Of a stretch of DNA of 32,000 nucleotides, positions 489 through 17,920 are shown in pieces. How positions within the stretch are numbered: position 1 is the stretch's first letter; each line of letters starts with the position of its first letter. The stretch is from Pseudoalteromonas tetraodonis (GTDB lineage: Bacteria > Pseudomonadota > Gammaproteobacteria > Enterobacterales > Alteromonadaceae). The notes beneath the pieces were generated by a model. That model saw only the letters and a program-made list of their open reading frames with translations. It had not been told where the DNA came from and did no database searches. A program made the position numbers and the translations under genes. The stretch is taken from NCBI RefSeq assembly GCF_002310835.1, contig NZ_CP011042.1, positions 360,001 through 392,000 on the forward strand. Direction: 5' to 3'.

Positions 489-3056
489 CTATTTCAGTAA
501 AAATGGTGCTGTTTTACTCGCTTTTACATTTGCCACTTTTTCAGGTTTACCTTGTGCAACTATATGCCCGCCTTCGTCGCCGGCTCCTGGGCCAATATCA
601 ATAACCCAATCACTGTTGCTGGCTACTTGCATATCGTGCTCGACCATAATAACGGTATTGCCAGCATCAACTAAGCCATTTAACTGCGTCATTAACATGG
701 CCACATCTTTAGGATGTAGACCAGTGGTTGGTTCATCTAAAACATAAAGCGTATCGCCGCGCTGAGCACGTTGTAGTTCAGTGGCCAGTTTTATACGCTG
801 GGCTTCGCCACCTGAAAGCTCAGTAGCGGGTTGCCCTAAACGTAAATAGCCAAGGCCTACCTGTAGCAGTGTATTTAGCGCGCGTTCAATAGCGGGCTCA
901 TCGTCAAAAAATGTATGCGCCGACTCAACCGTTAAATTAAGCACATCGGCAATGGTTTTATCTTTATATGTAATCTCGAGTGTTTTCTGGTTGTAGCGCT
1001 TAGCATTACACACAGGGCAGGGTGAATAGACACTAGGTAAAAATAACAGCTCTATACTAACAAAGCCTACACCTTCGCAGTTTTCGCAGCGGCCTTTTTT
1101 AACATTAAACGAAAAACGACCGGCATCGTACTTACGCGCTTTTGCTTCATTGGTATTAGCAAACAATTTTCGTACATGATCGAATAAGCCTGTGTAAGTT
1201 GCAAGGTTTGAACGAGGTGTGCGGCCAATGGCTTTTTGATCAACCGTGATAAGGCGTTTTATATGCTCAATGCCTTGCGTTATTTGTCCTTCGGTTGTTA
1301 TGTCGAGCTCTTGCTCGAGCAGCTCAGCGTTGTCTGTTGGTATTTGTGGCTGCGATTTTTGCCCAAGTGCATCGTAAACCAGTTCAACAAGCGCTTGGCT
1401 TACTAAGCTCGATTTACCTGAGCCAGATACCCCCGTAACACTTGTAATAACCCCAAGTGGAAATTCTACATCGAGTTTTTGTAAGTTATTACGCTCAATA
1501 TTTTTAAGCGATAGCCATGCTTTTGGTCGGCGTTGTTTGTGTTGTTTGTGTTGTATGTGAGCTAGGTGATTTTCTTCATTTTTAAATAAATACTGGCTAG
1601 TATGTGAGCTGCTAATTTGTTTTAAACCCTCAACAGGGCCGCTGTAAACAATATTACCGCCGTGTGTGCTAGCATTTGGCCCTACATCGACCACCCAATC
1701 GGCATGGCGAATAACGCTTACGTCGTGTTCAACCACAAAAACCGAGTTACCAGCGGCTATTAGTTCATCTAATGCGGCTAATAAGGCTTGCGTATCTGCA
1801 GGGTGTAAACCTGCCGATGGCTCATCTAACACATAAACTACACCAAATAACTTTGAGCGAATTTGCGTTGCAAGCCTTAGGCGTTGTAATTCCCCTAGCG
1901 ATAACGATGGGGTTGTGCGCTCCAGTGATAAATACCCTAAACCAAGCTTAGTTAACGCTTCAACGCGTTTAAGAATATCGCCTGCTATACGCTTTGCCAC
2001 TATAGCTTTTTCTGGATTTGCAGCGTTACTTTTAGCAGGCTTGCTAGCGGCAATACTTAATGTTTGCGCAAGTTCGCTAAGTGTTAACTGCGAAATTTCA
2101 CCAATATCAAAGCCTGCGACTTTAACCGATAACGACTTTTTTTTGAGTTTTTTACCATCACACTGTGGGCACGATGATACTTGCATATACTGCGACACGC
2201 GCTTTTTAGTACGCGGGCTTTGAGTGCTTGCAAACGATTGTAAAACAAAGCGTTTAGCACTCGAAAACGTACCCATGTAACTAGGATTTTCTTCATTTTT
2301 AATAGCAGCTTGGGTTTGCTTAAGCGTGTACTCGGGAAACACTGGCACTGTAGGGGTTTCGTCGGTAAACAAAATCCAATCTCGGGCTTTTTTAGGCAGG
2401 GTATTCCAAGGTTTATCAATATCGTAACCTAAAGAGGTAAGTATACGGCTTAGGTTTTTACCTTGCCAAGCCGGTGGCCATGCGGCAATGGCGCGATCCC
2501 TAATTGATTTAGTGGGGTCGGGCACCAGTAGCTCTTCGGTTACGTTAAATACGCGGCCAATACCATGGCACTCTGGGCATGCCCCTTGTGGCGTATTTGG
2601 CGAAAACGCATCGGCATAAAGAATGCCTTGCCCTTTGGGGTATTCGCCTGCGCGCGAATATAACATTCGCAGTGCGTTAGAAATAGTGGTTACGCTACCC
2701 ACGGATGAACGCACCGATGGCGCACCACGCTGTTGCTGGAGTGCGACCGCTGGTGGCAGGCCTTCAATTGAATCGACATCAGGCTCGTCTACCTGATCTA
2801 TTAATCTGCGCGCATAAGGCGATACCGAATCAAGGTAACGATGTTGCGACTCGGCAAATAACGTTCCAAAGGCAAGAGATGATTTACCAGAGCCAGATAT
2901 ACCGGTAAATACAACGAGTGAGTTACGGGGGAGGTTTAAATCCACATCTTTTAAGTTATGAACACGTGCGCCTCTTACTTCAATACTGTGCTCAGGGTTC
3001 AATAAAGCCGATTTCGCATTAGTAACCGCGTAAGTACTTTTAGGTGTAGCTGCCAT
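489..3056 (-). CDS. UvrA-like ABC ATPase paralog (class II type, lacking the UvrB-binding insert)
   Basis: 855-aa ORF with AAGGAG upstream of the ATG at 3056. It has two ABC halves: Walker A GISGSGKSS and GVSGSGKSS, signatures LSLGELQR and LSGGEAQR, Walker B VYVLDEPS and LYVLDEPT. Zn modules are CPECHG, CPQCDG and CENCEG..CPVC. The sequence runs from ..RMLYSRAGEYPKG almost directly into FSPNTPQGACPECHG, so the roughly 120-aa UvrB-binding domain of canonical ~940-aa UvrA is absent. Confidence 0.9.
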   Translation of the reverse strand: MAATPKSTYAVTNAKSALLNPEHSIEVRGARVHNLKDVDLNLPRNSLVVFTGISGSGKSSLAFGTLFAESQHRYLDSVSPYARRLIDQVDEPDVDSIEGLPPAVALQQQRGAPSVRSSVGSVTTISNALRMLYSRAGEYPKGQGILYADAFSPNTPQGACPECHGIGRVFNVTEELLVPDPTKSIRDRAIAAWPPAWQGKNLSRILTSLGYDIDKPWNTLPKKARDWILFTDETPTVPVFPEYTLKQTQAAIKNEENPSYMGTFSSAKRFVLQSFASTQSPRTKKRVSQYMQVSSCPQCDGKKLKKKSLSVKVAGFDIGEISQLTLSELAQTLSIAASKPAKSNAANPEKAIVAKRIAGDILKRVEALTKLGLGYLSLERTTPSLSLGELQRLRLATQIRSKLFGVVYVLDEPSAGLHPADTQALLAALDELIAAGNSVFVVEHDVSVIRHADWVVDVGPNASTHGGNIVYSGPVEGLKQISSSHTSQYLFKNEENHLAHIQHKQHKQRRPKAWLSLKNIERNNLQKLDVEFPLGVITSVTGVSGSGKSSLVSQALVELVYDALGQKSQPQIPTDNAELLEQELDITTEGQITQGIEHIKRLITVDQKAIGRTPRSNLATYTGLFDHVRKLFANTNEAKARKYDAGRFSFNVKKGRCENCEGVGFVSIELLFLPSVYSPCPVCNAKRYNQKTLEITYKDKTIADVLNLTVESAHTFFDDEPAIERALNTLLQVGLGYLRLGQPATELSGGEAQRIKLATELQRAQRGDTLYVLDEPTTGLHPKDVAMLMTQLNGLVDAGNTVIMVEHDMQVASNSDWVIDIGPGAGDEGGHIVAQGKPEKVANVKASKTAPFLLK

Positions 3057-7307: not shown

Positions 7308-8162
7308 TTGAAAATACCTAAACGCTTACAGCCATTAGTTGATGATGGTTTTATTGATGAAGTGATCAGCCGTTTAATGAGCGGTAAAGAGGCCGATGTA
7401 TTTGTGGTGGCCTGTGGCGATGACATTCGCTGCGCTAAAGTATACAAAGATGCCAGTAAGCGCAGTTTTAAAAAAGCTGCACAGTACCAAGAAGGACGAA
7501 AAGTACGTGGTGGCCGCCAAGCCCGTGCTATGGGTAAACGTTCAAGTTACGGCCGTCAATTAGAAGAAGAAATTTGGCAAAATGCCGAGGTTGACGCACT
7601 CTCGCGTTTATCCTCAGCAGGTGTTCGGGTACCGCAAACTTACGGCTGCATTGACGGTGTATTGTTAATGGAACTTGTAAGTGATGACGAAGGCGATGTT
7701 GCACCACAACTTGGCGCGGTTGATTTAACTGAGCAACAAGCCATTGAGCAACATATATTAATGATGCACTACATTAAACTAATGCTATGCGCTGGGATTA
7801 TTCACGGTGACTTATCGGAGTTTAACGTACTTGTAGATAGTAACGGCCCAGTAATTATTGATTTACCCCAAGCGGTTAATGCCTCTGCTAATAATAGCGC
7901 CGAAGCTATGTTTGCCCGTGATGTAAATAATATGCGCCGCTATTATGGCCAATTTGCACCGGCGTTATTACACACGCAATACGCCAAAGAAATGTGGGCA
8001 CTGTTTGAAGATGCTAACTTAACTCCGCACTCAGTGCTAAGTGGCGAATTTGAAGACGATGGCGAAGCTGCGGATGTTGATTCAGTACTTGACGAAATTC
8101 AAGCCGCCTTTGATGAAGAGCAAGAACGTAAAGAACGCATTCGCGACGCTGATGAGCAATAA
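7308..8162 (+). CDS. RIO1-like atypical serine protein kinase (PA4780-type bacterial RIO)
   Basis: 284 aa with a TTG start at 7308 and AGGTG 4 nt upstream. RIO motifs are SGKEADVF (ATP-binding loop), IHGDLSEFNVLV (catalytic loop) and IIDLPQAV (metal-binding Asp). The C-terminal tail is acidic. Confidence 0.85.
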   Translation: MKIPKRLQPLVDDGFIDEVISRLMSGKEADVFVVACGDDIRCAKVYKDASKRSFKKAAQYQEGRKVRGGRQARAMGKRSSYGRQLEEEIWQNAEVDALSRLSSAGVRVPQTYGCIDGVLLMELVSDDEGDVAPQLGAVDLTEQQAIEQHILMMHYIKLMLCAGIIHGDLSEFNVLVDSNGPVIIDLPQAVNASANNSAEAMFARDVNNMRRYYGQFAPALLHTQYAKEMWALFEDANLTPHSVLSGEFEDDGEAADVDSVLDEIQAAFDEEQERKERIRDADEQ

Positions 8163-8342
8163 CCCTTAATTTACGTGCTGAGTTTTATATAGTTTTAACT
8201 ATTAGATCAAAACTTAGCATGTAGGTATGAGCCATAAGGGATGAGTTTAGCTCGTCACTGCAAAATCTAAGTTAGTTCTGTCATTACTATCAACGGGAAC
8301 CGACAGGTGTGCATTTAACTAAAAGCAGCTTGATACTATCCA

Positions 8343-8777
8343 TTAATTAAATGCCATTGAGCCTGCAAACACATATTCATTATCAATGTAATAGCTGATA
8401 AATTCTTCCTCATTAAAATCACATTTATAAAAAAAAGACGTTGTGACAATCTTTTTATTATTTATGGTTATTTCGAATTCAGCCTGTGATGCTTTATTAA
8501 ATAAAACACTACACTTAGTATTTAAGCCTAACGAATAAACCTTACCATCAATTTCGATACTGTTGTTGCCTAAAGTAATTTCATTGGGAGTTGTTAATAA
8601 ATGCAAAAAGTAATAGAGCCCTGTCAAATAGAAAAAAGGAGAAACAAACAAAGCAGCCTTTATCTTTACAGACTCAGAGTCATGTAAATAATAGGTAGAG
8701 ATCATGGATATTATTGAGAACAAAACAACCATAACAAAATTTGGAGAGAGCCAGTTTTTGGTAAATTTAAATATCAT
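8343..8777 (-). CDS. Hypothetical membrane protein (island gene, minus strand)
   Basis: The track ORF 8343-8825 starts at a TTG. The first ATG (MIFKFTKNW..) is at 8777. It has two predicted TM helices followed by a roughly 80-aa soluble domain. It is low in GC and I recognise no motif. Confidence 0.5.
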   Translation of the reverse strand: MIFKFTKNWLSPNFVMVVLFSIISMISTYYLHDSESVKIKAALFVSPFFYLTGLYYFLHLLTTPNEITLGNNSIEIDGKVYSLGLNTKCSVLFNKASQAEFEITINNKKIVTTSFFYKCDFNEEEFISYYIDNEYVFAGSMAFN

Positions 8778-9278
8778 CTTCGATCGCAGAGGTAAGAGTG
8801 ACGGTCGACTCAATAATTTAAGCAAACAGAAACTAAGGTTCTAAATTTGTAGCCTATCTTATTAAATTAACAATGGTATTTCTATATTTAAGCGCCTGAA
8901 TAAAATATGCACTTCGCCCATTCCCTTGTTTGCCTGCTAATCTTTTTGAACACTTTATTGTGATATCGTACAAAGCCCACCTTGTCGTATTTTCGACAAC
9001 TTTTTAAGCATAAACGAGAGAGTCCTTAATGACTAAAGTTGACACTTATGCGAAGTTAGACAAAGAGCGAGAAGCTGTTAGTCAGAGCTTTTCTGTATGA
9101 CGTGAAGTTTTATCCGCTTGTTGGCAGTTTTTTCAATCCATTCTTAAAATTTATTTTGTTGTTATTTTCGAGTAGTTATCGTTTAATAACATGATGTTTT
9201 TTAAAGATAACTACTAGCGAATCTTCATCTCTTTAGTGAAAGCTAATGTCGGACCACACATAAGGAAATAGGTATAAA

Positions 9279-9773
9279 ATGGACACTACAATACGAAAAG
9301 CTGAATCAACCGATATCGCTGCAATAAAAATGCTGTGGCAGTTTTACCAATATCATCAGAGTATATTTGATTTAGAAGATGTTGGTTTAGATGGTTGCTA
9401 TGATATTGATGAAGAATATTTAGAATGTGTAGTGCGTGGTGAGGAAGACTGCATTATTTATCTTGTACTCGTTTCTAACCAAATTGCTGGTTTTGCTACC
9501 GTAGAACCAACTGAGATCGTTGGCAAAGAAATACCTGAGTTGGCTGATATTTTTATTCTACCCAAATATCGAAAACAGGGCATTGCCAAATTTGTTATTC
9601 AAAACTTGATGCCTGTTGAAACAAATCAGTGGCATGTAGCAGTTCATTTAAACGATAGTTCAGCGTTGAAATTTTGGAATAGTTTGTTTGCTAAATTAAA
9701 CGTTGTGCGTGTTGATAAAGTTGATCCCCCTGAAACAGAAGGCTACCACGAGTTTGTTATCACAAATAACTAG
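9279..9773 (+). CDS. GNAT-family N-acetyltransferase
   Basis: 164 aa. The acetyl-CoA motif A is ILPKYRKQGIAKFVI (R/Q-x-x-G-x-A/G). Confidence 0.85.
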   Translation: MDTTIRKAESTDIAAIKMLWQFYQYHQSIFDLEDVGLDGCYDIDEEYLECVVRGEEDCIIYLVLVSNQIAGFATVEPTEIVGKEIPELADIFILPKYRKQGIAKFVIQNLMPVETNQWHVAVHLNDSSALKFWNSLFAKLNVVRVDKVDPPETEGYHEFVITNN

Positions 9774-9862
9774 CAAGATTAACGTCTTCTGCGCTTAAGT
9801 AAAATTTGGTAAAGAGCGATAATAGGATATTCAGGTGAGTCGTCATTAAAATAGTGAGAATA

Positions 9863-9885
9863 AGAGGGAAACCTTCCTCTTTTTT
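9863..9885 (+). terminator. Rho-independent terminator after the GNAT gene
   Basis: AGAGGGAA-ACC-TTCCTCT hairpin (7 bp, one bulged G) followed by TTTTT. Confidence 0.6.
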
Positions 9886-10015
9886 GCATGTTTAAATAAG
9901 CTACAGTAAGCATAATATTTATAGCTGGTAATAACTTACACTATTTGTTATTAATATACGTTCACAAAATAAGGACGTTTTCGCGCTAAAATAGTGAAAG
10001 TGTCGTCTGATAAAG

Positions 10016-10029
10016 TTGTTATAAGCCGT
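10016..10029. repeat. Left copy of a perfect 14-bp inverted repeat (TTGTTATAAGCCGT). It contains a core-site-like GTT at 10018-10020.
   Basis: It is the exact reverse complement of 12780-12793 and ends 40 nt upstream of the nuclease gene start. Confidence 0.9.
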
Positions 10030-10069
10030 AAATTGGCATGGAGTATACCTGTGATTCTTGTAAAGGATT

Positions 10070-11140
10070 ATGATGGAATTAGCTAAAAGCCTTATTGATG
10101 TGCCTCAAACAGAACGAGGTGGTGAAATAGCTCAAAGAGGGTTTGACTTTCAAGCCTGTTGGGCTCTTTCTCATATGTTTGAATATGAATTACAAGATAA
10201 AGAATACGTTTTTGTTTTTGAATATCACGATGACGTACTTATTCTTGATTCAGAGAACCTTCCAAAAAAAGCTACGTTTGCCCAAGTTAAAACTAATGAG
10301 AAACCGTGGACATTAAGTAAATTAATTACGGCTACAAAGAAAAAGCCTATTTCATTTATTGGTAAGTTATTTGAGCAGAAAAGCAAATTTGACAATTCAG
10401 ATATTGAATTATTGTTTGTTTCTAATGCTTACTTTAGTTTTGATAAAAGAAACAAGTTTAAGGCAGATGAAATTAAGGAAGAAGATCAAAAAATTGTACT
10501 AGATAAAGTATCTAAGCAATTATCTAGTGAGGATGCCTTGGAACTCTCAAAGTTAACATTCTTAACATCTGATTTGAGTTTAGAAGATCACTCTGCACAC
10601 TTAAAAGGTAAAATTTGTGACTTCTTTGAAAGCTATTTCGACGATAGTATTGAAATTAATCCTACATCATTTGCTAGAACTCTAGAAAGTGCATGTAGAG
10701 ACAGAGCGAAAGTAAGATCATCAGATATTCGAAGCTTCGATGAGCTCATCAGAAGGAAAGGTTTTACTTCTTCATTTGTAAAAGACACGCTTAATAATAT
10801 TTGCGCAACAAAGAGCTTACAACCTGATTGGGAAAATGCTCGCTCGATATTCGCTGATATGGGTAAAAGCCCTATTCAATTACTGTCATTGCAATCGACT
10901 TTTACGCGTATAAGTATCTCAGTAAAGTCATCTACAAGTGTCGAGAAATTGTACTTGGAAAAAGCTGACTTGTTATTCGATAAGCAAGCAGTAGAAAAAT
11001 CTATGACTATGTATATCTTTGAATCAATTAAATTATTAGAAGTATCTCTTCCTGATTATTCTTTAGCCCTAACTGACCCTAAAAAAGAGTGCATCATTGT
11101 TTATTCAGTAATAAAAAATATTATAGGAGGCGAGGAATAA
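10070..11140 (+). CDS. Cap4/DUF4297-type PD-(D/E)xK dsDNA nuclease domain protein (Lamassu LmuA-like effector)
   Basis: 356 aa. The N-terminus reads ERGGEIAQRGFDFQACWALSHM ... FVFE51YHD54D55VLILD ... FAQ72VK74, the GG-x5-G-[FY]-x-[FY]-Q plus E..DD..QxK pattern of the Cap4 nuclease fold. The C-terminal ~220 aa are helical with no named motif. AAGGA precedes the start, and the stop overlaps the next gene's ATG. Confidence 0.6.
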   Translation: MMELAKSLIDVPQTERGGEIAQRGFDFQACWALSHMFEYELQDKEYVFVFEYHDDVLILDSENLPKKATFAQVKTNEKPWTLSKLITATKKKPISFIGKLFEQKSKFDNSDIELLFVSNAYFSFDKRNKFKADEIKEEDQKIVLDKVSKQLSSEDALELSKLTFLTSDLSLEDHSAHLKGKICDFFESYFDDSIEINPTSFARTLESACRDRAKVRSSDIRSFDELIRRKGFTSSFVKDTLNNICATKSLQPDWENARSIFADMGKSPIQLLSLQSTFTRISISVKSSTSVEKLYLEKADLLFDKQAVEKSMTMYIFESIKLLEVSLPDYSLALTDPKKECIIVYSVIKNIIGGEE

Positions 11141-12780
11141 TGAGTCTCATACATTTTAAAGATATATCTATCCTTTCTCGTAGAGATAAAAAAGGTTTTA
11201 GCTTTGATTTTTCACCTACTGTTAATATGATTTTTGGTGAAAATGATACAGGTAAATCTAGTTTAATAAAGGCGTTATACTTCACGCTTGGAGGCGATTG
11301 TCGGATTGATAAAGATTGGAAAGATGATGATATTATTACCAAGGTTGGCATAAGCGTTAAAGGAAAAAGTTATTCATTTATTAGGCATAATAAAAGGATT
11401 TCAATATTCCTAAACTCTGACGATGCAAAACCAATAGTAGCGTCTAGCCACATGAGTGCTATTGCAGATAAAGTTCGGGAAATTTTCGATTTTAATTTAC
11501 AGCTATCTTTCAAGAAAACAGGCAAACAAAGCCAAGCTAATCCTGCATGTTTATATCTACCGTTTTATATTGACCAAGATAATGGTTGGCATACTGTTTT
11601 ATCATCATTTCTAGGTTTAGCGATGTATGATGATTGGCAAAAAAACTCTTTACAGTTTCACTCAGGGATGAAACCAAAAGAATATTATGAACTGGTTGGT
11701 GAAATAAAAACAATACAGCTTGAGTTAGAAGAACTTAGCGCAACACTCACCGTAGTTCTTGCAGCTAAGAAAAGATTTGAAGAGTCATTCGGCAGAGTCT
11801 TATTTGATATAGATATTGAATATTATCAAGATTTGCTGAATAAGTTTTTAGCAAAATGTCAGGAACTAAACGAAGAAGAATCAGAGTTTAGATTAAAACT
11901 ATTAAGCTTACTCTCTGGTAGAGACTCAATAGCCAGTGAAATTGATGTATGCAGAAACCTCATAGAAAACTTTGATGACCATACGACTAGTGATGCTGCA
12001 GAAAAATATCACATGTTCGAAAATAGGGAGCAAATTTTAGAAATTCTTCCTCAAATGTATGACGAAAAACAAGCTCTAGACGACCAAATAAACTCAATTA
12101 AAGAAGAGTTGCGTCAGTCGAAAACATTGAGTTCAGAGCTAAACTCAATGATGCAAGAGGTTAGAGGTGAATTGACATTACAGGACGTGATTAAGTCTCA
12201 AGCGAGTAAAGAAGTAGAGTTTACTTTTGATGAACAAATAAAAAGCCTTCATGAAAAAATTGGTGCTCAAACGACAGCTTTAGAAGCGTTGATTAAAAAA
12301 CAAAATGAGTTTACTGATAAAAAACGTACCCAAAGTATTAACGATGATTTCAAATCTTATCTATCGATCGCACAGGAGAAGTTAGGTATAGGTTCGCCTA
12401 TTATTGCTCCCTTAATCCAGTATGGGAAAATAACAAAGAGTAAGACAGGAAGCAGAAGCCCAAGATCTATTTTTGCTTATCATTATGGTTTACTCAAAAC
12501 AATGGAAAAACACTCTTCAGTAAGTATGCTACCTATTGTAATAGATTCACCTAAACAGCAAGATCTTGATACTGAAGGTACCGAGAAGCTAATTGCTTTA
12601 TGTACTGAAGATCTAGGGAAGAATAATCAAGTAATTATTGGAGCTGTATCACTCGAAAGTAATATGCATGGTTACCACCAAATAGAACTTACAGAAAAGT
12701 ATAGTTTATTAAAATCAGAGGGGTATGAAGAAGCTTATAACCAAATTATGCCTTTTTATGAAAGAGGTATGTGCTATTAA
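11140..12780 (+). CDS. Coiled-coil Rad50/SMC-like ABC ATPase (Lamassu LmuB / DUF3732-like)
   Basis: I prefer the ATG at 11140 (GGAGG at 11126-11130, TAATG overlap with the upstream stop) over the track start at 11089. This gives 546 aa. The P-loop is GENDTGKSS (nt 11236-11259) in the context TGKSSLIKALYFTLGG, and a Q-loop-like YIDQD is present. Residues ~180-415 are E/K/L/Q-rich and heptad-like. The C-terminus has the signature-like TGSRSPRSIFAYHYGLL followed by MLPIVID469SPKQQDLD (Walker B / D-loop). Confidence 0.6.
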   Translation: MSLIHFKDISILSRRDKKGFSFDFSPTVNMIFGENDTGKSSLIKALYFTLGGDCRIDKDWKDDDIITKVGISVKGKSYSFIRHNKRISIFLNSDDAKPIVASSHMSAIADKVREIFDFNLQLSFKKTGKQSQANPACLYLPFYIDQDNGWHTVLSSFLGLAMYDDWQKNSLQFHSGMKPKEYYELVGEIKTIQLELEELSATLTVVLAAKKRFEESFGRVLFDIDIEYYQDLLNKFLAKCQELNEEESEFRLKLLSLLSGRDSIASEIDVCRNLIENFDDHTTSDAAEKYHMFENREQILEILPQMYDEKQALDDQINSIKEELRQSKTLSSELNSMMQEVRGELTLQDVIKSQASKEVEFTFDEQIKSLHEKIGAQTTALEALIKKQNEFTDKKRTQSINDDFKSYLSIAQEKLGIGSPIIAPLIQYGKITKSKTGSRSPRSIFAYHYGLLKTMEKHSSVSMLPIVIDSPKQQDLDTEGTEKLIALCTEDLGKNNQVIIGAVSLESNMHGYHQIELTEKYSLLKSEGYEEAYNQIMPFYERGMCY

Positions 12781-12793
12781 CGGCTTATAACAA
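12780..12793. repeat. Right copy of the 14-bp inverted repeat (ACGGCTTATAACAA)
   Basis: It is the exact reverse complement of 10016-10029 and starts on the last base of the ATPase stop codon. Confidence 0.9.
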
Positions 12794-12870
12794 GTCGTTA
12801 AAAAAGGACAAAAAACAGTTGGCTTTTGCCACTTCGTCGCTATTTATAGCCGCTTAACGAGGCGTTTTTA
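12785..12870 (+). repeat. Element X: an attC-like imperfect palindrome (candidate integron cassette recombination site)
   Basis: The layout is TTATAAC(R''-like)-AAG-TCGTTAA(L'') ... TTAACGA(L')-GGC-GTTTTTA(R'-like). The L boxes pair over 7 bp, the 3-nt spacers are unpaired, and the AAC/GTT triplets pair. A central hairpin (AGTTGGC-TTTT-GCCACT) has one bulged T. If G12864 is joined to 10019 onward, as in a circular cassette, the R box becomes a perfect 12-bp helix. Confidence 0.45.
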
Positions 12871-12875
12871 ATCGA

Positions 12876-13181
12876 ATGGATTTACATATGAAGAAATGGG
12901 TGCTTAAGAAAAGAATTTTTATGATAGGTTTTTTACCTTTCATGGGGGTATTCGTCGCACTTCTTTTAAATTTTATTGCAGGCTCTGCTTATACAACGTC
13001 ACTAAATCAAAGTGCAATTCGCGTATATTTTATGGGGTCTGCCATGTGGTCGGTACTTGCGCTTTTTTCAGGGGTATATATGTATTCCAAATGTAGTTCT
13101 ATGAATCATCTAAAGTTTATCCTTGGGGTATCGTCGGTCAGTTTAGGTATTACTATACCTTGGATAATAGGTATGTCGTAG
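12876..13181 (+). CDS. Hypothetical small membrane protein
   Basis: 101 aa with three hydrophobic spans (alternative start 12888, MKKWV..). No recognisable motif. Confidence 0.5.
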   Translation: MDLHMKKWVLKKRIFMIGFLPFMGVFVALLLNFIAGSAYTTSLNQSAIRVYFMGSAMWSVLALFSGVYMYSKCSSMNHLKFILGVSSVSLGITIPWIIGMS

Positions 13182-13243
13182 TAACTAAAACATAAAAAGT
13201 GGCTATGGTGCTCGATATCCGCTTTTGGCACTTTGCAGACAAT

Positions 13244-13298
13244 CGATAATGTAAGTCGAAATTAGTGTGTTGATTTAACGCGCTTAATTCGGTTTAAT
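13244..13298 (+). repeat. Element W: a short relative of element X (hairpin repeat)
   Basis: It shares CGATAAT-GT-AAGTCG at the 5' end and CGCTTAAT-TCG-GTTTAAT at the 3' end with X. TAAGTCGAAATTA (13252-13264) pairs with TAATTCGGTTTA (13285-13296): 12 pairs including 2 G-U, with one bulged A. Confidence 0.4.
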
Positions 13299-13484
13299 AT
13301 CAGCTAATAAATATGCTGAGTAATGCAGGGACAGCTTAGGGCAGCGCATTTCATTAACTTGGCCTGATGTTACATAGGTCACTAAAAGCCCCCCCTTTAT
13401 CAAGTAAAGCCCATTGTATAAATAGTTCCCACGCTGACACCCATACAGGGAGTGCTTCAGCTAATATGTGCCAAGGATAGCTCA

Positions 13485-13994
13485 TTGAAAAAATTAAGGT
13501 TTCTACTTGTTCTACTTAATGCCGCTTTCCTTGTAGGGATGATTATACCAGATGAAACTGTTATTCCTGTTGAGGGTGCAACACCCAACGATTGGAACCA
13601 TAATACTTTTTGGTATGAGCCATGGGGAAGCTCTGTGGTCCATAAGGGAATTAATATATTTGGTAAAAAAGGAACTACCACACTTTCTTCTAGTAAAGGC
13701 TTAGTCATTTATACGGGCACAATAAGTAAATGCGGGAATGTAGTGGCAGTTTTAGGGCCTAAATGGCGTATTCACTATTATGCGCATATGGACAGTTACT
13801 CTGTTACAACGGTTACTGTTGTTAAGACTGGCTCAGTTATTGGTGTTTTGGGGGATTCAGGTAATGCCCAAGGAAAACAGCAACACATTCATTACTCAAT
13901 CTTATCAATAATTCCAATTCCTTGGTTAGCTACAACACAGACTCAGGGTTGGAAAAGAATGTTTTTTTTAAACCCTCACGAAATGTTTATATAA
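13485..13994 (+). CDS. Secreted M23 (LytM-type) metallopeptidase-family protein with Asn in place of the HxxxD aspartate
   Basis: The track ORF starts at GTG 13452. I prefer TTG 13485 (AAGGA 7 nt upstream), which gives the signal-like MKKLRFLLVLLNAAFLVG. M23 motifs are HKGINIF (canonical HxGxDI), HYYAHM and GDSGNAQGKQQHIHYSI (HxH). Confidence 0.7.
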   Translation: MKKLRFLLVLLNAAFLVGMIIPDETVIPVEGATPNDWNHNTFWYEPWGSSVVHKGINIFGKKGTTTLSSSKGLVIYTGTISKCGNVVAVLGPKWRIHYYAHMDSYSVTTVTVVKTGSVIGVLGDSGNAQGKQQHIHYSILSIIPIPWLATTQTQGWKRMFFLNPHEMFI

Positions 13995-14097
13995 GTTGTA
14001 TTGAAAAAAGTGTTTAAGACAGGTATCGATATGAATCTCATTCACAAGTAAGGTGCTGTAAAACATTTACATCAGCGATTAATATTAAGGAGAATAT

Positions 14098-14442
14098 ATG
14101 CCTCATTTTATAATGGACTGTTCTGAAAGTTTTTTTGGGGAACATGATGAGGAATACAATATTGAACAAATTCATTTTGTAGCTCACACTACAGGTTTAT
14201 TCGATGAAGGTGATATAAAAGTTAGAATAAATCCATTTAATACTTTCTCTGTAGGGAATAAGCGTGAAGACTTTATCCATGTGTTTGCCCATATAATGCA
14301 AGGAAGAACAACAGAGCAAAAAGCGAACCTCTCACGAGTAATTGTTAGTAAGCTTGTTACTTTATTTCCTGAAATTTCTAACATTGCAATAAACATTAGT
14401 GATTTTGAAAAAGCGACATATTGCAATCGCACGATGCTTTAG
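14098..14442 (+). CDS. Tautomerase-superfamily protein (5-carboxymethyl-2-hydroxymuconate isomerase-like)
   Basis: 114 aa starting MPHFIMDCS. Pro-1 after Met removal and this length class are typical of CHMI-type tautomerases. AGGAG precedes the ATG. Confidence 0.6.
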   Translation: MPHFIMDCSESFFGEHDEEYNIEQIHFVAHTTGLFDEGDIKVRINPFNTFSVGNKREDFIHVFAHIMQGRTTEQKANLSRVIVSKLVTLFPEISNIAINISDFEKATYCNRTML

Positions 14443-14475
14443 CCAGCTATTATCTGCTATTTAACATAGTTTTGG

Positions 14476-14892
14476 ATGTTTATAAAACGTATGAGTAACT
14501 CTCAACTACAAAATCTAATATCTCTTTATACTGCTTTTGCTTTTGTACCTACGTTATTGCTTTATTTGATTTATAGTATATTTGGTTGGGTTGTATTTTC
14601 ACTTACATTAAACCCTTTTTTGGGTTATTTTTTGGTGGGTGGTGCTTATGGTTTATGGTCACTCCATTCATTAATAAAAACGATGAAAAACTTAACGGTA
14701 TTAAAGCATCCTATTATTGTGATAGTTGGATTGTTATTAGGTTGTAGTTTTTGTCCTGTCGTTTTAACAACGACTGAATTTAGTACGATGAAACCACAAG
14801 AATATATTTTTATGTATATTATTATTGCACCCTTTATAGCGACTTTACATTTGTTTTATTTATATAAAAAACAGTTGGCTAGCGTCTCTTGA
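14476..14892 (+). CDS. Hypothetical integral membrane protein
   Basis: 138 aa with about four TM helices (alternative start ATG 14491). No recognisable motif. Confidence 0.5.
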   Translation: MFIKRMSNSQLQNLISLYTAFAFVPTLLLYLIYSIFGWVVFSLTLNPFLGYFLVGGAYGLWSLHSLIKTMKNLTVLKHPIIVIVGLLLGCSFCPVVLTTTEFSTMKPQEYIFMYIIIAPFIATLHLFYLYKKQLASVS

Positions 14893-14946
14893 ACGATTAC
14901 TTTAACTATTTCTCAGTGGGCTTTATTAAACAAGGAGAACACAGGT

Positions 14947-15423
14947 ATGGAACCAAATTATTCAGAATATTCAATTTCAGAGCTAGAAGAGTCATTACGT
15001 GCTATCGATCAAGAAGCGTATCCTGAAAGAACAAATGAACTAAAGAAAGAGTTAAATAATCGCCTTGTAAACCCAACAACGAGTTATGAAGTTGAGGATG
15101 GTTTTGAGGCGAATGAACAATTTTATAAATGTCCTCATTGTGAAGAAAAAATTGGATTTTTTTCTAAAGCGTTACAAAGTTGGAGCAAGATAAGAGAGTG
15201 CCCGCAATGCAAAAAACCATTTGCAGTAACCTTTAATATAAAAGTGTTTTTCGTTGCGCTTTTACCTATGGTTATTTTTAATTATTTTATGATAAAACCT
15301 GTTTTAGGATCACTGGGATTAAGTAAGTCCATTGGTTTGGGGATAGTTTGTGGTGTGTTAATTATTATATCAACCCGCTTGATCAGAGTTGGTAGCGAAA
15401 GTAACACTACAAAAGAGGTTTAA
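14947..15423 (+). CDS. Zinc-ribbon protein with C-terminal transmembrane helices
   Basis: 158 aa with AAGGAG upstream. It has CPHC-x21-CPQC followed by two hydrophobic helices. Confidence 0.55.
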   Translation: MEPNYSEYSISELEESLRAIDQEAYPERTNELKKELNNRLVNPTTSYEVEDGFEANEQFYKCPHCEEKIGFFSKALQSWSKIRECPQCKKPFAVTFNIKVFFVALLPMVIFNYFMIKPVLGSLGLSKSIGLGIVCGVLIIISTRLIRVGSESNTTKEV

Positions 15424-15455
15424 GATAAATTTTGAAATGTTTTGTCTAGGTTTAT

Positions 15456-15479
15456 ACGCTTTATAGAAAAGCGTTTTTT
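15456..15479 (+). terminator. Rho-independent terminator
   Basis: ACGCTTT-ATAGA-AAAGCGT stem-loop followed by a T run. Confidence 0.7.
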
Positions 15480-15579
15480 GTTGGGAGTATTTTAGTAAGT
15501 TCGTTTAGTGTTGCTGCACACCTTGGTAAACTTAAACACTAGTTGTTCATTTTACTGAGCATATTTTTAGGAGTAGTCT

Positions 15580-15945
15580 TTGAAGTACATAACTATATTT
15601 TTAGTCCTTTTACTGGTTGGTTGTAATAGTATTAATGAAGCGGCAAATTCAAGTACTGTGTATATCAATGCGCAAACAGATTCACCTGCTAAATGGGTTG
15701 TGAAGATTGAACCAAAATATCCTGAAGATGCGGCTAAAAAAAGCGTAGAGGGCTACTTAAAGTTCAAAGCAATAGTTAATGAAGTTGGAGCGTTAGAAAG
15801 AGTTGAAGTAATTGAATCTGCCCCAAATGGTGTATTTGAAAAGGAAGGTTTACGGGCTTTAAAGCTATGGAGATTTAAGCCTGCGTTATTAAATGGTAGG
15901 CTGGTTAAGGTTGAGTACGCTGGTACTCTCGAGTGGAAGTTATAA
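15580..15945 (+). CDS. Stand-alone TonB C-terminal-domain lipoprotein
   Basis: 121 aa with a TTG start behind AGGAG. The signal and lipobox read MKYITIFLVLLLVGC. The TonB_C motif string is PKYPEDAAKKSVEGYLKFKAIVNEVGALERVEVIESAPNGVFEKEGLRALKLWRFKPALLNGRLV. Confidence 0.75.
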   Translation: MKYITIFLVLLLVGCNSINEAANSSTVYINAQTDSPAKWVVKIEPKYPEDAAKKSVEGYLKFKAIVNEVGALERVEVIESAPNGVFEKEGLRALKLWRFKPALLNGRLVKVEYAGTLEWKL

Positions 15946-16193
15946 TGTCTCTAGGGATGAGCATATCATGGAGATCTAAGCAACCTAAACAAAAACGATG
16001 TGATAGGTGTGAACTGTATTATTCTGAATTTTTGGATAAATGTACGCATTGTTCCGATTTAAACGAAGCACAATTACTTATGCTTAAGGCTAAACACCAA
16101 GAATCTCTTAAACAAAATGCTAAGCTTGGTAAATACTTATTTATAGCTGCTGTTGTAATTGGTGTATTACTTTTTGTTAGTTTTTTATGGTAG
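15945..16193 (+). CDS. Small zinc-ribbon protein with a C-terminal TM anchor
   Basis: The ATG at 15945 overlaps the upstream stop (TAATG); the track start is 15933. It has CDRC-x12-CTHC, a helical linker and a C-terminal TM segment (YLFIAAVVIGVLLFVSFLW). Confidence 0.5.
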   Translation: MSLGMSISWRSKQPKQKRCDRCELYYSEFLDKCTHCSDLNEAQLLMLKAKHQESLKQNAKLGKYLFIAAVVIGVLLFVSFLW

Positions 16194-16330
16194 CGTTGGG
16201 TTTTTCCTTAAGTGGAAGAGGGTAAGTTAACAGAGAAAAACCCCCAAATACATTCAGCTTAAAAACTCATATCCATCCGGTAACTTTAAAATTTATCACA
16301 CTGAACTATCCGTCCAACTAACAGTTGTTG

Positions 16331-17920
16331 TTATTTAATTAAACCTAAAACTCCTTGATTAACTAAATAAGTCTGCGCTTCATCAGTATGGGGCTTAAAC
16401 TTTTTCCAGCGGCCTATGGCCTTGTTGTTAAGCGGTTGGCGCACTTGCATTTTGCTGGCGGTTGAAACTGGTGCGGTGTTTAAATGAAAATCAAGGCACT
16501 GTGGTTGCCAGTCTAAGTCGCAATAGCTCACTAATTCTTTTATTTTTTGCTCTGGTGCGGCGATGAGCTCTTCGTATTTTACTAGTTTAATATTGCTGTG
16601 CAGGGTGCTGAAGTGCTGCATCAGTTTATAAAAGCGGCTGTAAAATTTAGCGGTGTCGAGTAAGTCTAAGGAGTACGCGTAGTAGGGGTTATTAATAGTA
16701 AATAGCTGGCGATAGTTACCAATACAGGTGTCCATGGGGTCGCGAAGTAGGCAAATTATTTTAGCATTAGGCAGGGCTTTGGTAATTAAATCGATATAAA
16801 AAAAGTTAAACGGTAGCTTATCAATAAAGTGTTTATGGCTGCCGGTTACAACACGGGTTGCTTCAAGGTAAGTGCTGCCAAGTTTTGCAAAATCAAGCTG
16901 GTAAGCCTGGCTTAAGGTATCTGTATCGAGTACTTGAGGCGTGTGCGTTTGGCTAAGTTTTTTTACACTTAGGCCAAAGTCTTGCAGTTCTCCCGCTGAT
17001 TGTACGTCGCTGTGGCTTGATAAAATGCGTTCAACTAATGTGGTGCCAGAGCGCGGCATGCCTAATACAAAAATTGGCTCACTGCTTTGGTTGCCAGCCG
17101 TTTGTTGGTTTTTGTATTTATCACTGAGCTGTTTTATATGTGCAAATAAAGCCTCAGACGCTTGGTTATCAAACGCCTTATTAGCAAGTTTTGCTGCTTT
17201 ACCTTGTTGTAACGCGGCAAAGGCTGCTGAAAACTCTCCTAAGTCTTGATATTCTTTTGCTAGCGCATGACCTATATGTAGTTTAGCGTCGGGATGATTG
17301 ACCTGTTCGAATACATTTTTTAATCGCGCTATGTGGTTATTATGTTCGGTGACTTTAGTTAAATCGGCTAAGGCAAAATGACTTTGATGATGAAGCGGGT
17401 TCAGTGCAATGGCATTTTCAAACGCTTGCTGTGCTTTATCAAACTGGCCTAAAAATTTAGCACACACCCCATAGTTATAATAAAACTGCGGCTGACGAGT
17501 ATTACTCGCCTCAGCTAAACTTAATGCGCATATAAAGTAGTCAGCAGCATGCTGATGTAAACCCGCTTGGGTGAGCGCGACGCCTAATGTATCGGCATCA
17601 AGTGCTTTACTAATATGTTCAATCTTAACGCTGAGGGCGGTGTTTTTTGCTTTTTGTAAATTGCCGGTAAGGGCGTAACACTTGGCAAGTTGCGCTGTAT
17701 ATTCAATAGACTGGGTAAAGCTTAATGCTTTTTCAATTAGCTTTATCGCTTTATAAATTTGACCAACCTGTAAATTAACCATAGCGAGCAAAAAGTAGCC
17801 ATCAGCAAAGTCTGGTTTTTGTGTTACCAGCTCAACCAGTGCTTTATGCGCTTGCTGAATGTTGCCTTGGTTTAAGTTGTTGATAGCGCTTTGGTGTAGT
17901 TGCTTTAAGTTTGGCTGCAT
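16331..17920 (-). CDS. TPR-repeat-containing sulfotransferase-family protein
   Basis: 529 aa. The N-terminal ~270 aa are TPR-like. The C-terminal domain has the PAPS-binding 5'-PSB motif GMPRSGTTLVERIL and the 3'-PB-like LLRDPMDTCIG. Confidence 0.85.
   Translation of the reverse strand: MQPNLKQLHQSAINNLNQGNIQQAHKALVELVTQKPDFADGYFLLAMVNLQVGQIYKAIKLIEKALSFTQSIEYTAQLAKCYALTGNLQKAKNTALSVKIEHISKALDADTLGVALTQAGLHQHAADYFICALSLAEASNTRQPQFYYNYGVCAKFLGQFDKAQQAFENAIALNPLHHQSHFALADLTKVTEHNNHIARLKNVFEQVNHPDAKLHIGHALAKEYQDLGEFSAAFAALQQGKAAKLANKAFDNQASEALFAHIKQLSDKYKNQQTAGNQSSEPIFVLGMPRSGTTLVERILSSHSDVQSAGELQDFGLSVKKLSQTHTPQVLDTDTLSQAYQLDFAKLGSTYLEATRVVTGSHKHFIDKLPFNFFYIDLITKALPNAKIICLLRDPMDTCIGNYRQLFTINNPYYAYSLDLLDTAKFYSRFYKLMQHFSTLHSNIKLVKYEELIAAPEQKIKELVSYCDLDWQPQCLDFHLNTAPVSTASKMQVRQPLNNKAIGRWKKFKPHTDEAQTYLVNQGVLGLIK

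Follow-up and report, generated by a model that had tools for sequence, protein, structure and literature searches.

A probable type I Lamassu system with a Cap4-type nuclease effector in a variable region of Pseudoalteromonas tetraodonis chromosome 2

Analysis of a 32,000-nucleotide (nt) stretch of the Pseudoalteromonas tetraodonis genome (assembly GCF_002310835.1, contig NZ_CP011042.1, positions 360,001 to 392,000 of the forward strand; hereafter the window) revealed two overlapping genes, here called lmuA and lmuB, that very probably form an intact type I Lamassu, i.e., a two-gene, LmuC-less, short Lamassu with a Cap4-nuclease effector; we place the probability of this reading at about 0.9. 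The gene content, domains, motifs, likeness in fold to type I LmuAB, absence of LmuC, and patchy, mobile distribution are seen directly in the sequences and models. Since existing defence-system models detect both proteins, lmuAB is not a new family but an uncharacterised member of the known type I Lamassu. Type I systems have been known since 2018 (Doron 2018, cited in 10.1101/2025.06.23.660979), and for LmuAB of Bacillus cellulasensis both defence against phage T1 and a cryo-electron microscopy structure have been reported (10.1101/2025.06.23.660979). The two genes and their junction are as follows.

lmuA, 10070-11140, + strand: open reading frame (ORF) of 356 amino acids (aa), the effector
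lmuB, ORF 11089-12780, + strand, 546 aa from the ATG at 11140: SMC/Rad50-like ABC ATPase
lmuA/lmuB junction, 11126-11142, + strand: TAATG stop/start overlap after GGAGG in the sequence, indicating translational coupling

At the junction, GGAGGCGAGGAATAATGAGT, the lmuA stop codon TAA (11138-11140) and the lmuB start codon (11140-11142) have a single base in common, and GGAGG lies about 10 nt upstream of the lmuB ATG, within the 3' end of lmuA. Equivalent A-B overlaps (ATGA or TAATG after GAGG or GGAGG) were found in homologous pairs from five other taxa. An initial annotation, made from the window sequence, had described a two-gene module at these coordinates with TAATG behind GGAGG in low-GC surroundings, all of which is borne out by the ORFs, the junction sequence, and the GC profile.

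Both proteins match PADLOC models (PADLOC-DB v2, 2023) from end to end. LmuA aligns through residues 2-356 with positions 1-360 of the 361 in the LmuA model PDLC00243 (expectation value, E, 1.8e-153; 509 bits), and LmuB through residues 1-545 with positions 1-549 of the 550 in the LmuB model PDLC00255 (E 5.9e-264; 875 bits); many further LmuA and LmuB models match below these top ones. NCBIfam has no model for either LmuA or LmuB. The full-length matches, together with the Bacillus structure 9ux7 as the best hit in the profile search (LmuB) and in Foldseek, uphold the earlier proposal of a type I Lamassu in A-B order. The option that the pair might be a distinct, undescribed family falls away, with the subfamily already in the 2023 database and type I structures and mechanism published (10.1101/2025.06.23.660979; PMC12663957).

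Weaker matches to other defence systems accompany these hits. LmuA gives weak PADLOC HamA matches (E 2.5e-7), LmuB gives weak GajA and AbiLi matches, and Foldseek also retrieves HamA (8zue_A), Cap4 (6vm6), and HerA-DUF (9c1m) for the LmuA model, as might be expected if a Cap4/DUF4297 nuclease of another family (CBASS, Hachiman HamA, or HerA-DUF4297) happened to lie beside an unrelated ABC ATPase of the Gabija, PARIS, or AbiL kind. However, the PADLOC HamA, GajA, and AbiLi matches are weaker by at least 100 orders of magnitude, such matches lying 100-250 orders of magnitude below those to LmuA and LmuB; the neighbourhood holds no SAVED domain, cyclase, HamB helicase, or HerA; and lmuA and lmuB are translationally coupled and co-inherited across taxa. 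A nuclease from another defence family is refuted by the PADLOC score gap, and the chance pairing as a whole has next to no probability.

Within LmuA, residues 16-213 correspond to the Pfam Cap4_nuclease domain (E 3.9e-40). An alignment of 36 homologues revealed invariant residues E15, G18, Q28, E51, H53, D54, and D55, while Q72-V73-K74 is at least 90% conserved. As judged from the aligned sequences, this motif set is the D...QxK signature of Cap4-type PD-(D/E)xK nucleases. By motif position alone, K74 matches the catalytic mutants K57/K59 of Vc/BcLmuA and K74 of EcCap4 (7yia); K57 and K59 are published catalytic mutants of Vibrio and Bacillus LmuA (10.1101/2025.06.23.660979). The Pfam match, the conserved motifs, and a Cap4 fold retained in the Foldseek comparison thus confirm the earlier assignment of gene A to the Cap4-type PD-(D/E)xK nucleases. 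The helical domain that follows is shorter than the approximately 220 aa first estimated: with the Pfam Cap4 model reaching residue 213, it comprises about 140 aa (residues ~214-356).

A single-sequence phmmer search of PDB returned nothing for LmuA. As the LmuA sequence profile also failed against PDB, we turned to structure prediction and Foldseek. The AlphaFold2 (AF2) model of LmuA (predicted local distance difference test, pLDDT, 89.9) displays a nuclease core of the alpha/beta kind, after which residues 223-353 form a helical bundle. The top PDB match of the model is the LmuA chain 9ux7_C (E 9e-9, 343 aligned columns, 14% identity), from the entry titled 'CryoEM structure of LmuAB-DNA complex', and Hachiman HamA, CBASS Cap4, HerA-DUF4297, and the Avs3 nuclease domain appear at lower ranks. 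The C-terminal helical bundle aligns with that of LmuA in 9ux7 and, by homology, may be the module that is sequestered by LmuB and mediates tetramerisation. Searched alone, the C-terminal domain gave 11 representatives (50% clustering), all with one architecture; at the search sensitivity used, there is no sign in these sequences of modular reuse with other effectors. This narrow spread is the only hint of a detail specific to the subfamily.

In LmuB, an alignment of 35 homologues revealed invariant residues in the following blocks. The Walker A motif GENDTGKS (G33-K39-S40) has G33, N35, D36, G38, K39, and S40 invariant; the Q-loop block P141, I144, D145, Q146, D147, G149, and W150; the signature-like block T436-G-S-R-x-P-R; and the Walker B/D-loop V467, D469-S470-P, Q473-Q474, and D477. 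Within the stretch V467-I-D469-S470-P-K-Q-Q-D-L-D477, the Walker B is deviant (P-I-V-I-D469-S470), in that the residue after the aspartate is serine, not glutamate. Where Rad50 has its H-loop histidine, the alignment shows valine (V503) without exception, and the sequence holds no CxxC zinc hook motif. Pfam matches are AAA_23, SMC_N, and AAA_15. In the AF2 model (pLDDT 83.1), the ABC head is split by continuous helices at residues 180-414, forming a coiled coil of about 235 aa. The heptad-like insert of about 235 aa in the initial annotation is recovered in these helices, and the alignment, PADLOC, AF2 model, and Foldseek results agree with its Rad50/SMC-type ABC layout, P-loop, and signature-like motif.

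These features fall within the description of short Lamassu LmuB, which has a Gx4GK[S/T] Walker A, an hhhhD[Q/S/T/E] Walker B, 0-2 zinc hooks, and a length of ~550-600 aa (PMC12663957); LmuB of the window, with 546 aa, Gx4GKS, a D[S] Walker B, and zero zinc hooks, fits. While a single-sequence phmmer search of PDB retrieved Rad50 P-loops only, the profile built from the 35 homologues matched an entry named 'Lamassu protein LmuB' (9ux7_A) at E 1.2e-28 over residues 9-535. The same profile matched Rad50 at the P-loop only, and no type II LmuB in PDB at E <= 0.01. Foldseek gave a congruent ranking for the LmuB model: type I LmuB first (9ux7_A, E 3e-23, 20% identity), type II LmuB second (9uxh_F, E 8e-16), then B. 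subtilis YydD, followed by Salmonella LmuB (9hqu, 9hqx) and 9nyg_B, with Rad50, SMC, SbcC, JetC, RecN, and RecF ranked after these. By profile and by Foldseek (3e-23 vs 8e-16), rather than by phylogeny, LmuB is therefore closer to LmuC-less LmuB than to type II LmuB.

PADLOC matched none of nine neighbouring proteins to LmuC, and in the five other taxa the lmuAB pair is not accompanied by a conserved third gene. There is no room for a middle gene because lmuA and lmuB overlap, and this overlap together with the lack of an LmuC match gives a two-gene, type I arrangement. Haudiquet et al. (PMC12663957) describe a clade of short Lamassu ('clade S') that has lost LmuC; LmuAB of Bacillus cellulasensis is a representative of it.

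A type II Lamassu with an unrecognised LmuC could be imagined nonetheless, for example one encoded by the downstream 101-aa gene at 12876-13181. LmuC is small and so divergent that hidden Markov models can miss it, and all P. tetraodonis-like contigs have the 101-aa ORF 3' of lmuB and on the same strand. In type II systems, however, lmuC is located between lmuA and lmuB, which overlap here. Judged by its sequence, the 101-aa protein seems to be hydrophobic and membrane-like, and it matches nothing in PADLOC or Pfam; its gene is separated from lmuB by a terminator-like hairpin, and nothing equivalent stands beside the pair in the five other taxa; and LmuB is closest to the LmuC-less Bacillus protein. 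We consider a hidden LmuC very improbable, and the type I assignment is kept in what follows.

Comparison with characterised systems places lmuAB nearest to LmuAB of Bacillus cellulasensis NIO-1130 (PDB: 9ux7/9ux8), which provides the best LmuB sequence-profile match and the best Foldseek match for both models. The two have in common an A-then-B operon without LmuC, a LmuA built of a Cap4 nuclease and a helical C-terminal domain, and a LmuB of ~550 aa with D-S in Walker B, no aligned H-loop histidine, and a short coiled coil. They differ in host (gammaproteobacterial vs Firmicute), in the signature region (TGSRxPR in P. tetraodonis, SGMDKNK in the Bacillus protein), and in sequence, with identities of ~20% for LmuB and 14% for LmuA and a LmuA profile that does not reach 9ux7. 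Type II Lamassu (V. cholerae DdmABC and Salmonella enterica LmuACB; 9uxh, 9nyg, 9hqu, 9hqx) likewise combine a Cap4 LmuA with a short SMC-like LmuB bearing a deviant Walker B, and presumably follow the same logic of sequestering the nuclease, sensing DNA ends, releasing it, and letting it tetramerise. In contrast, they carry the middle gene lmuC and a LmuB of ~630-650 aa, and their LmuB structures give Foldseek E values of 1e-11 to 1e-16 vs 3e-23 for type I. With CBASS Cap4 (PF14130), LmuA has in common the nuclease fold, the D...QxK active site, and, presumably, activation by oligomerisation; CBASS Cap4 differs in its fused SAVED sensor and cyclic-oligonucleotide trigger, whereas the lmuAB locus is without a SAVED domain or cyclase.

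To place the pair among relatives, we took 80 related-species loci around orthologues of the adjacent RIO1-kinase gene. lmuA and lmuB were absent within 10 kb in 80/80 loci, including the two closest (97% and 94% RIO1 identity). In locus L012, the region equivalent to window positions 8171-16355 is replaced by ~0.9 kb with a single GFA-like ORF. Elsewhere, the subfamily is widespread, occurring in marine Vibrio, Pseudoalteromonas, Aeromonas, and Photobacterium as well as on Klebsiella phages and plasmids, with homologues on 12 Klebsiella phage records and 40 plasmids. An overlapping A-B pair lies between housekeeping genes in V. cholerae and Photorhabdus; in Cronobacter it is part of a lambdoid prophage, where it separates the replication genes from the Q-antiterminator gene. 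In P. luteoviolacea the pair belongs to an island that also contains another ABC-ATPase pair, a SIR2 protein, a resolvase, and Tn7 genes, and in Halomonas it adjoins a TIR protein in an element with ERF and YqaJ genes. No other gene is common to these five contexts. Taken together, lmuAB was very probably acquired horizontally into a variable region of P. tetraodonis chromosome 2.

Two of these neighbourhoods deserve mention on their own account. The P. luteoviolacea locus (L096, 9751-12075 and 15758-16882) encodes an AAA_15/AAA_21 ABC ATPase with a 279-aa partner, and a SIR2_2 protein, which are likely defence genes; the Halomonas locus (L097, 9727-10641) encodes a CAP12-PCTIR TIR-domain protein beside lmuAB that likely has a role in defence as well. 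In each pair compared (L091-L097), LmuA diverges faster than LmuB, with identities to the window proteins of 89 vs 95%, 69 vs 73%, 46 vs 59%, and 35 vs 43%.

The distribution bears on whether the pair could be a housekeeping DNA-repair module, in which a RecF/RecN/SbcC-like ATPase and a nuclease act on damage to host DNA. Lamassu are thought to descend from SbcCD, their proposed ancestor (PMC12663957), and the P-loop region of LmuB weakly matches Rad50, RecF, and SMC models (NCBIfam E 1e-4 to 1e-10). LmuB indeed resembles SbcCD/Mre11-Rad50 in that an antiparallel coiled coil interrupts the ABC head, and presumably in recognising DNA ends. SbcCD/Mre11-Rad50 differs, however, in its much longer coiled coil, zinc hook, canonical Walker B glutamate, and H-loop histidine, in its head-bound phosphoesterase nuclease partner, and in its core-genome, housekeeping status, and it matches LmuB at the P-loop only. 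The NCBIfam matches reach 19-38 bits, far short of the curated cut-offs (172-1087 bits), and cover only ~60 residues, Foldseek ranks Lamassu LmuB above Rad50, RecN, and RecF, and the pair, absent at this locus in all 80 related-species genomes, is found elsewhere on prophages, plasmids, and defence islands. A repair function is largely refuted, and its probability is negligible. In line with this, and with regard to the checks listed in the initial annotation, gene A does not fall outside the PD-(D/E)xK fold, gene B does not fall in a RecF/RecN/SbcC clade, and the pair is not present in all relatives.

The LmuA and LmuB sequences are 100% identical in 10 contigs from independent samples; the lmuB product shows full (100%) identity with 'hypothetical protein PTE01_34160 [Pseudoalteromonas tetraodonis GFC]', and the window is collinear with contig BSNE01000020.1 of GCA_030159815.1 (locus L002). 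Against a second lineage (L001), positions 9750-13000 of the window differ at 5 of ~3250 positions (~99.85% identity), and the 3 differences inside lmuAB are all synonymous, while the flanks differ by 2-6%. For the two lineages compared, this pattern suggests a recent exchange of the ~3.2-kb lmuAB module.

The limits of the transcription unit were approached through a consensus scan, which gave two pattern matches around the pair.

9862-9881, + strand: terminator-like hairpin and T-run, 3' of the upstream GNAT gene (pattern match only)
12851-12864, + strand: terminator-like hairpin and T-run, 70 nt 3' of the lmuB stop codon (pattern match only)

If read as terminators, the first hairpin is the 5' limit of the lmuAB transcription unit and the second is likely the 3' limit of the operon. 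Flanked by such hairpins, the pair has the appearance of a self-contained operon, with its promoter presumably within 9882-10069; a promoter scan gave fewer matches than in shuffled sequence and none on the + strand upstream of lmuA.

Upstream of lmuA we found an intergenic element of ~190 nt (9802-9990) that comprises the terminator-like hairpin and a conserved AT-rich block, TAAGCATAATATTTATAGCTGGTAATAACTTACAC. The sister strain Pseudoalteromonas sp. RW-H-Ap-1 has two copies with ~74% identity (L011, 10910-11087 and 12329-12468), one on each side of a lone LD-carboxypeptidase-like gene that occupies the same position directly after RIO1. The element has no Rfam match at E <= 1, and other copies were found only in this one sister strain. 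It may act as a shared promoter/terminator module or mark the boundary of a cassette.

The cassette itself sits in a larger region, delimited by the GC profile and the locus comparison.

8171-16355, no strand assigned: low-GC variable region holding the cassette, from the RIO1-kinase gene to a sulfotransferase/TPR gene

GC is 0.33-0.35 over 8000-13000 vs 0.40-0.46 in the flanks. Besides lmuAB, the region encodes a 160-aa membrane protein, a GNAT acetyltransferase, the 101-aa membrane protein, an M23 peptidase, a CHMI-like isomerase, two hypothetical proteins, and a TonB_C protein; the L001 lineage lacks the sub-block 13254-15503. Pfam and PADLOC gave no mobility-gene match among the island ORFs scanned, the called genes of the matching L002 contig contain no integrase or transposase domain, and the window holds no tRNA or Rfam family. 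The accessory island of the initial annotation stands as a low-GC variable region, but one without other recognisable defence genes. The 160-aa predicted membrane protein (8343-8825, - strand) has no Pfam match and a weak PADLOC '4TM effector' match (E 4.7e-5), which may reflect transmembrane composition only. At the left edge of the window, beside LysE/LysR genes, an 855-aa UvrA-like paralogue (489-3056, - strand) carries UvrA_DNA-bind and ABC domains according to the L002 gene table.

The solitary position of the system in a non-defence island, and a promoter scan that found none for lmuAB, could be taken to mean that the pair is a decaying or silent remnant that gives no protection. Both ORFs are, however, full length relative to the models, all catalytic and ATPase motifs are intact, the proteins are identical across the 10 contigs, and every nucleotide difference from L001 within the genes is synonymous. 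We therefore judge decay to be quite improbable and continue to regard lmuAB as an intact system.

Several observations weigh against a type I Lamassu at this locus. The Foldseek alignments give low identities (LmuB 20%, LmuA 14%) to the one type I system characterised so far, no solved LmuA in PDB is reached by a sequence profile of LmuA, and TM-scores to solved structures are only ~0.5. Scores of this size are expected for flexible coiled-coil or two-domain proteins, in which the coiled coil and the angle between domains differ. Pfam DUF3732, to which the initial annotation had assigned gene B, is undetected in LmuB at E <= 1, and that label is withdrawn; its absence reflects one Pfam model, not the family as PADLOC and DefenseFinder now define it. 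The scanned neighbouring proteins include no other recognisable defence gene in the island. Finally, we found in the literature no functional data for the lmuAB locus or the gammaproteobacterial subfamily, and a full-text search for Lamassu with Pseudoalteromonas returned no paper that, by title or abstract, concerns this locus.

A working mechanism can be drawn from Bacillus cellulasensis LmuAB and from Vibrio and Salmonella LmuACB (10.1101/2025.06.23.660979, 10.1101/2025.03.14.643221, PMC12663957). By analogy, a LmuB dimer would keep one LmuA monomer inactive, with its folded coiled coil gripping the LmuA C-terminal domain. Double-stranded DNA (dsDNA) ends, or end-like replication intermediates of phages or plasmids, would then bind the LmuB head, and ATP hydrolysis by this head with its deviant Walker B would free LmuA. 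The released nuclease would tetramerise through its C-terminal domain, so that two Cap4 domains pair to form one active site. Indiscriminate degradation of dsDNA would follow, killing the infected cell and aborting the infection. Our confidence that every step transfers to P. tetraodonis is somewhat lower than for the type I identification, because identity is 14-20% and the LmuA profile reaches no solved LmuA. It seems to us unlikely that the gammaproteobacterial LmuAB lost LmuC independently, or that it departs from the Bacillus system in its sequestration or tetramerisation geometry or in its trigger, or, as a separate matter, that the element upstream of lmuA marks a recombination hotspot for the swapping of cassettes.

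Beyond annotation the significance is small, and no long-standing question is opened. For the genes that the GenBank record of P. tetraodonis GFC labels 'hypothetical protein / Rad50-SbcC-type AAA', the names lmuA and lmuB (Lamassu type I, Cap4 nuclease) can now be used. The locus cleanly illustrates the insertion of a minimal defence cassette, alone, into a variable chromosomal spot, and its subfamily could provide a Gram-negative model of type I Lamassu; structural work on this type has so far been confined to a Bacillus system.

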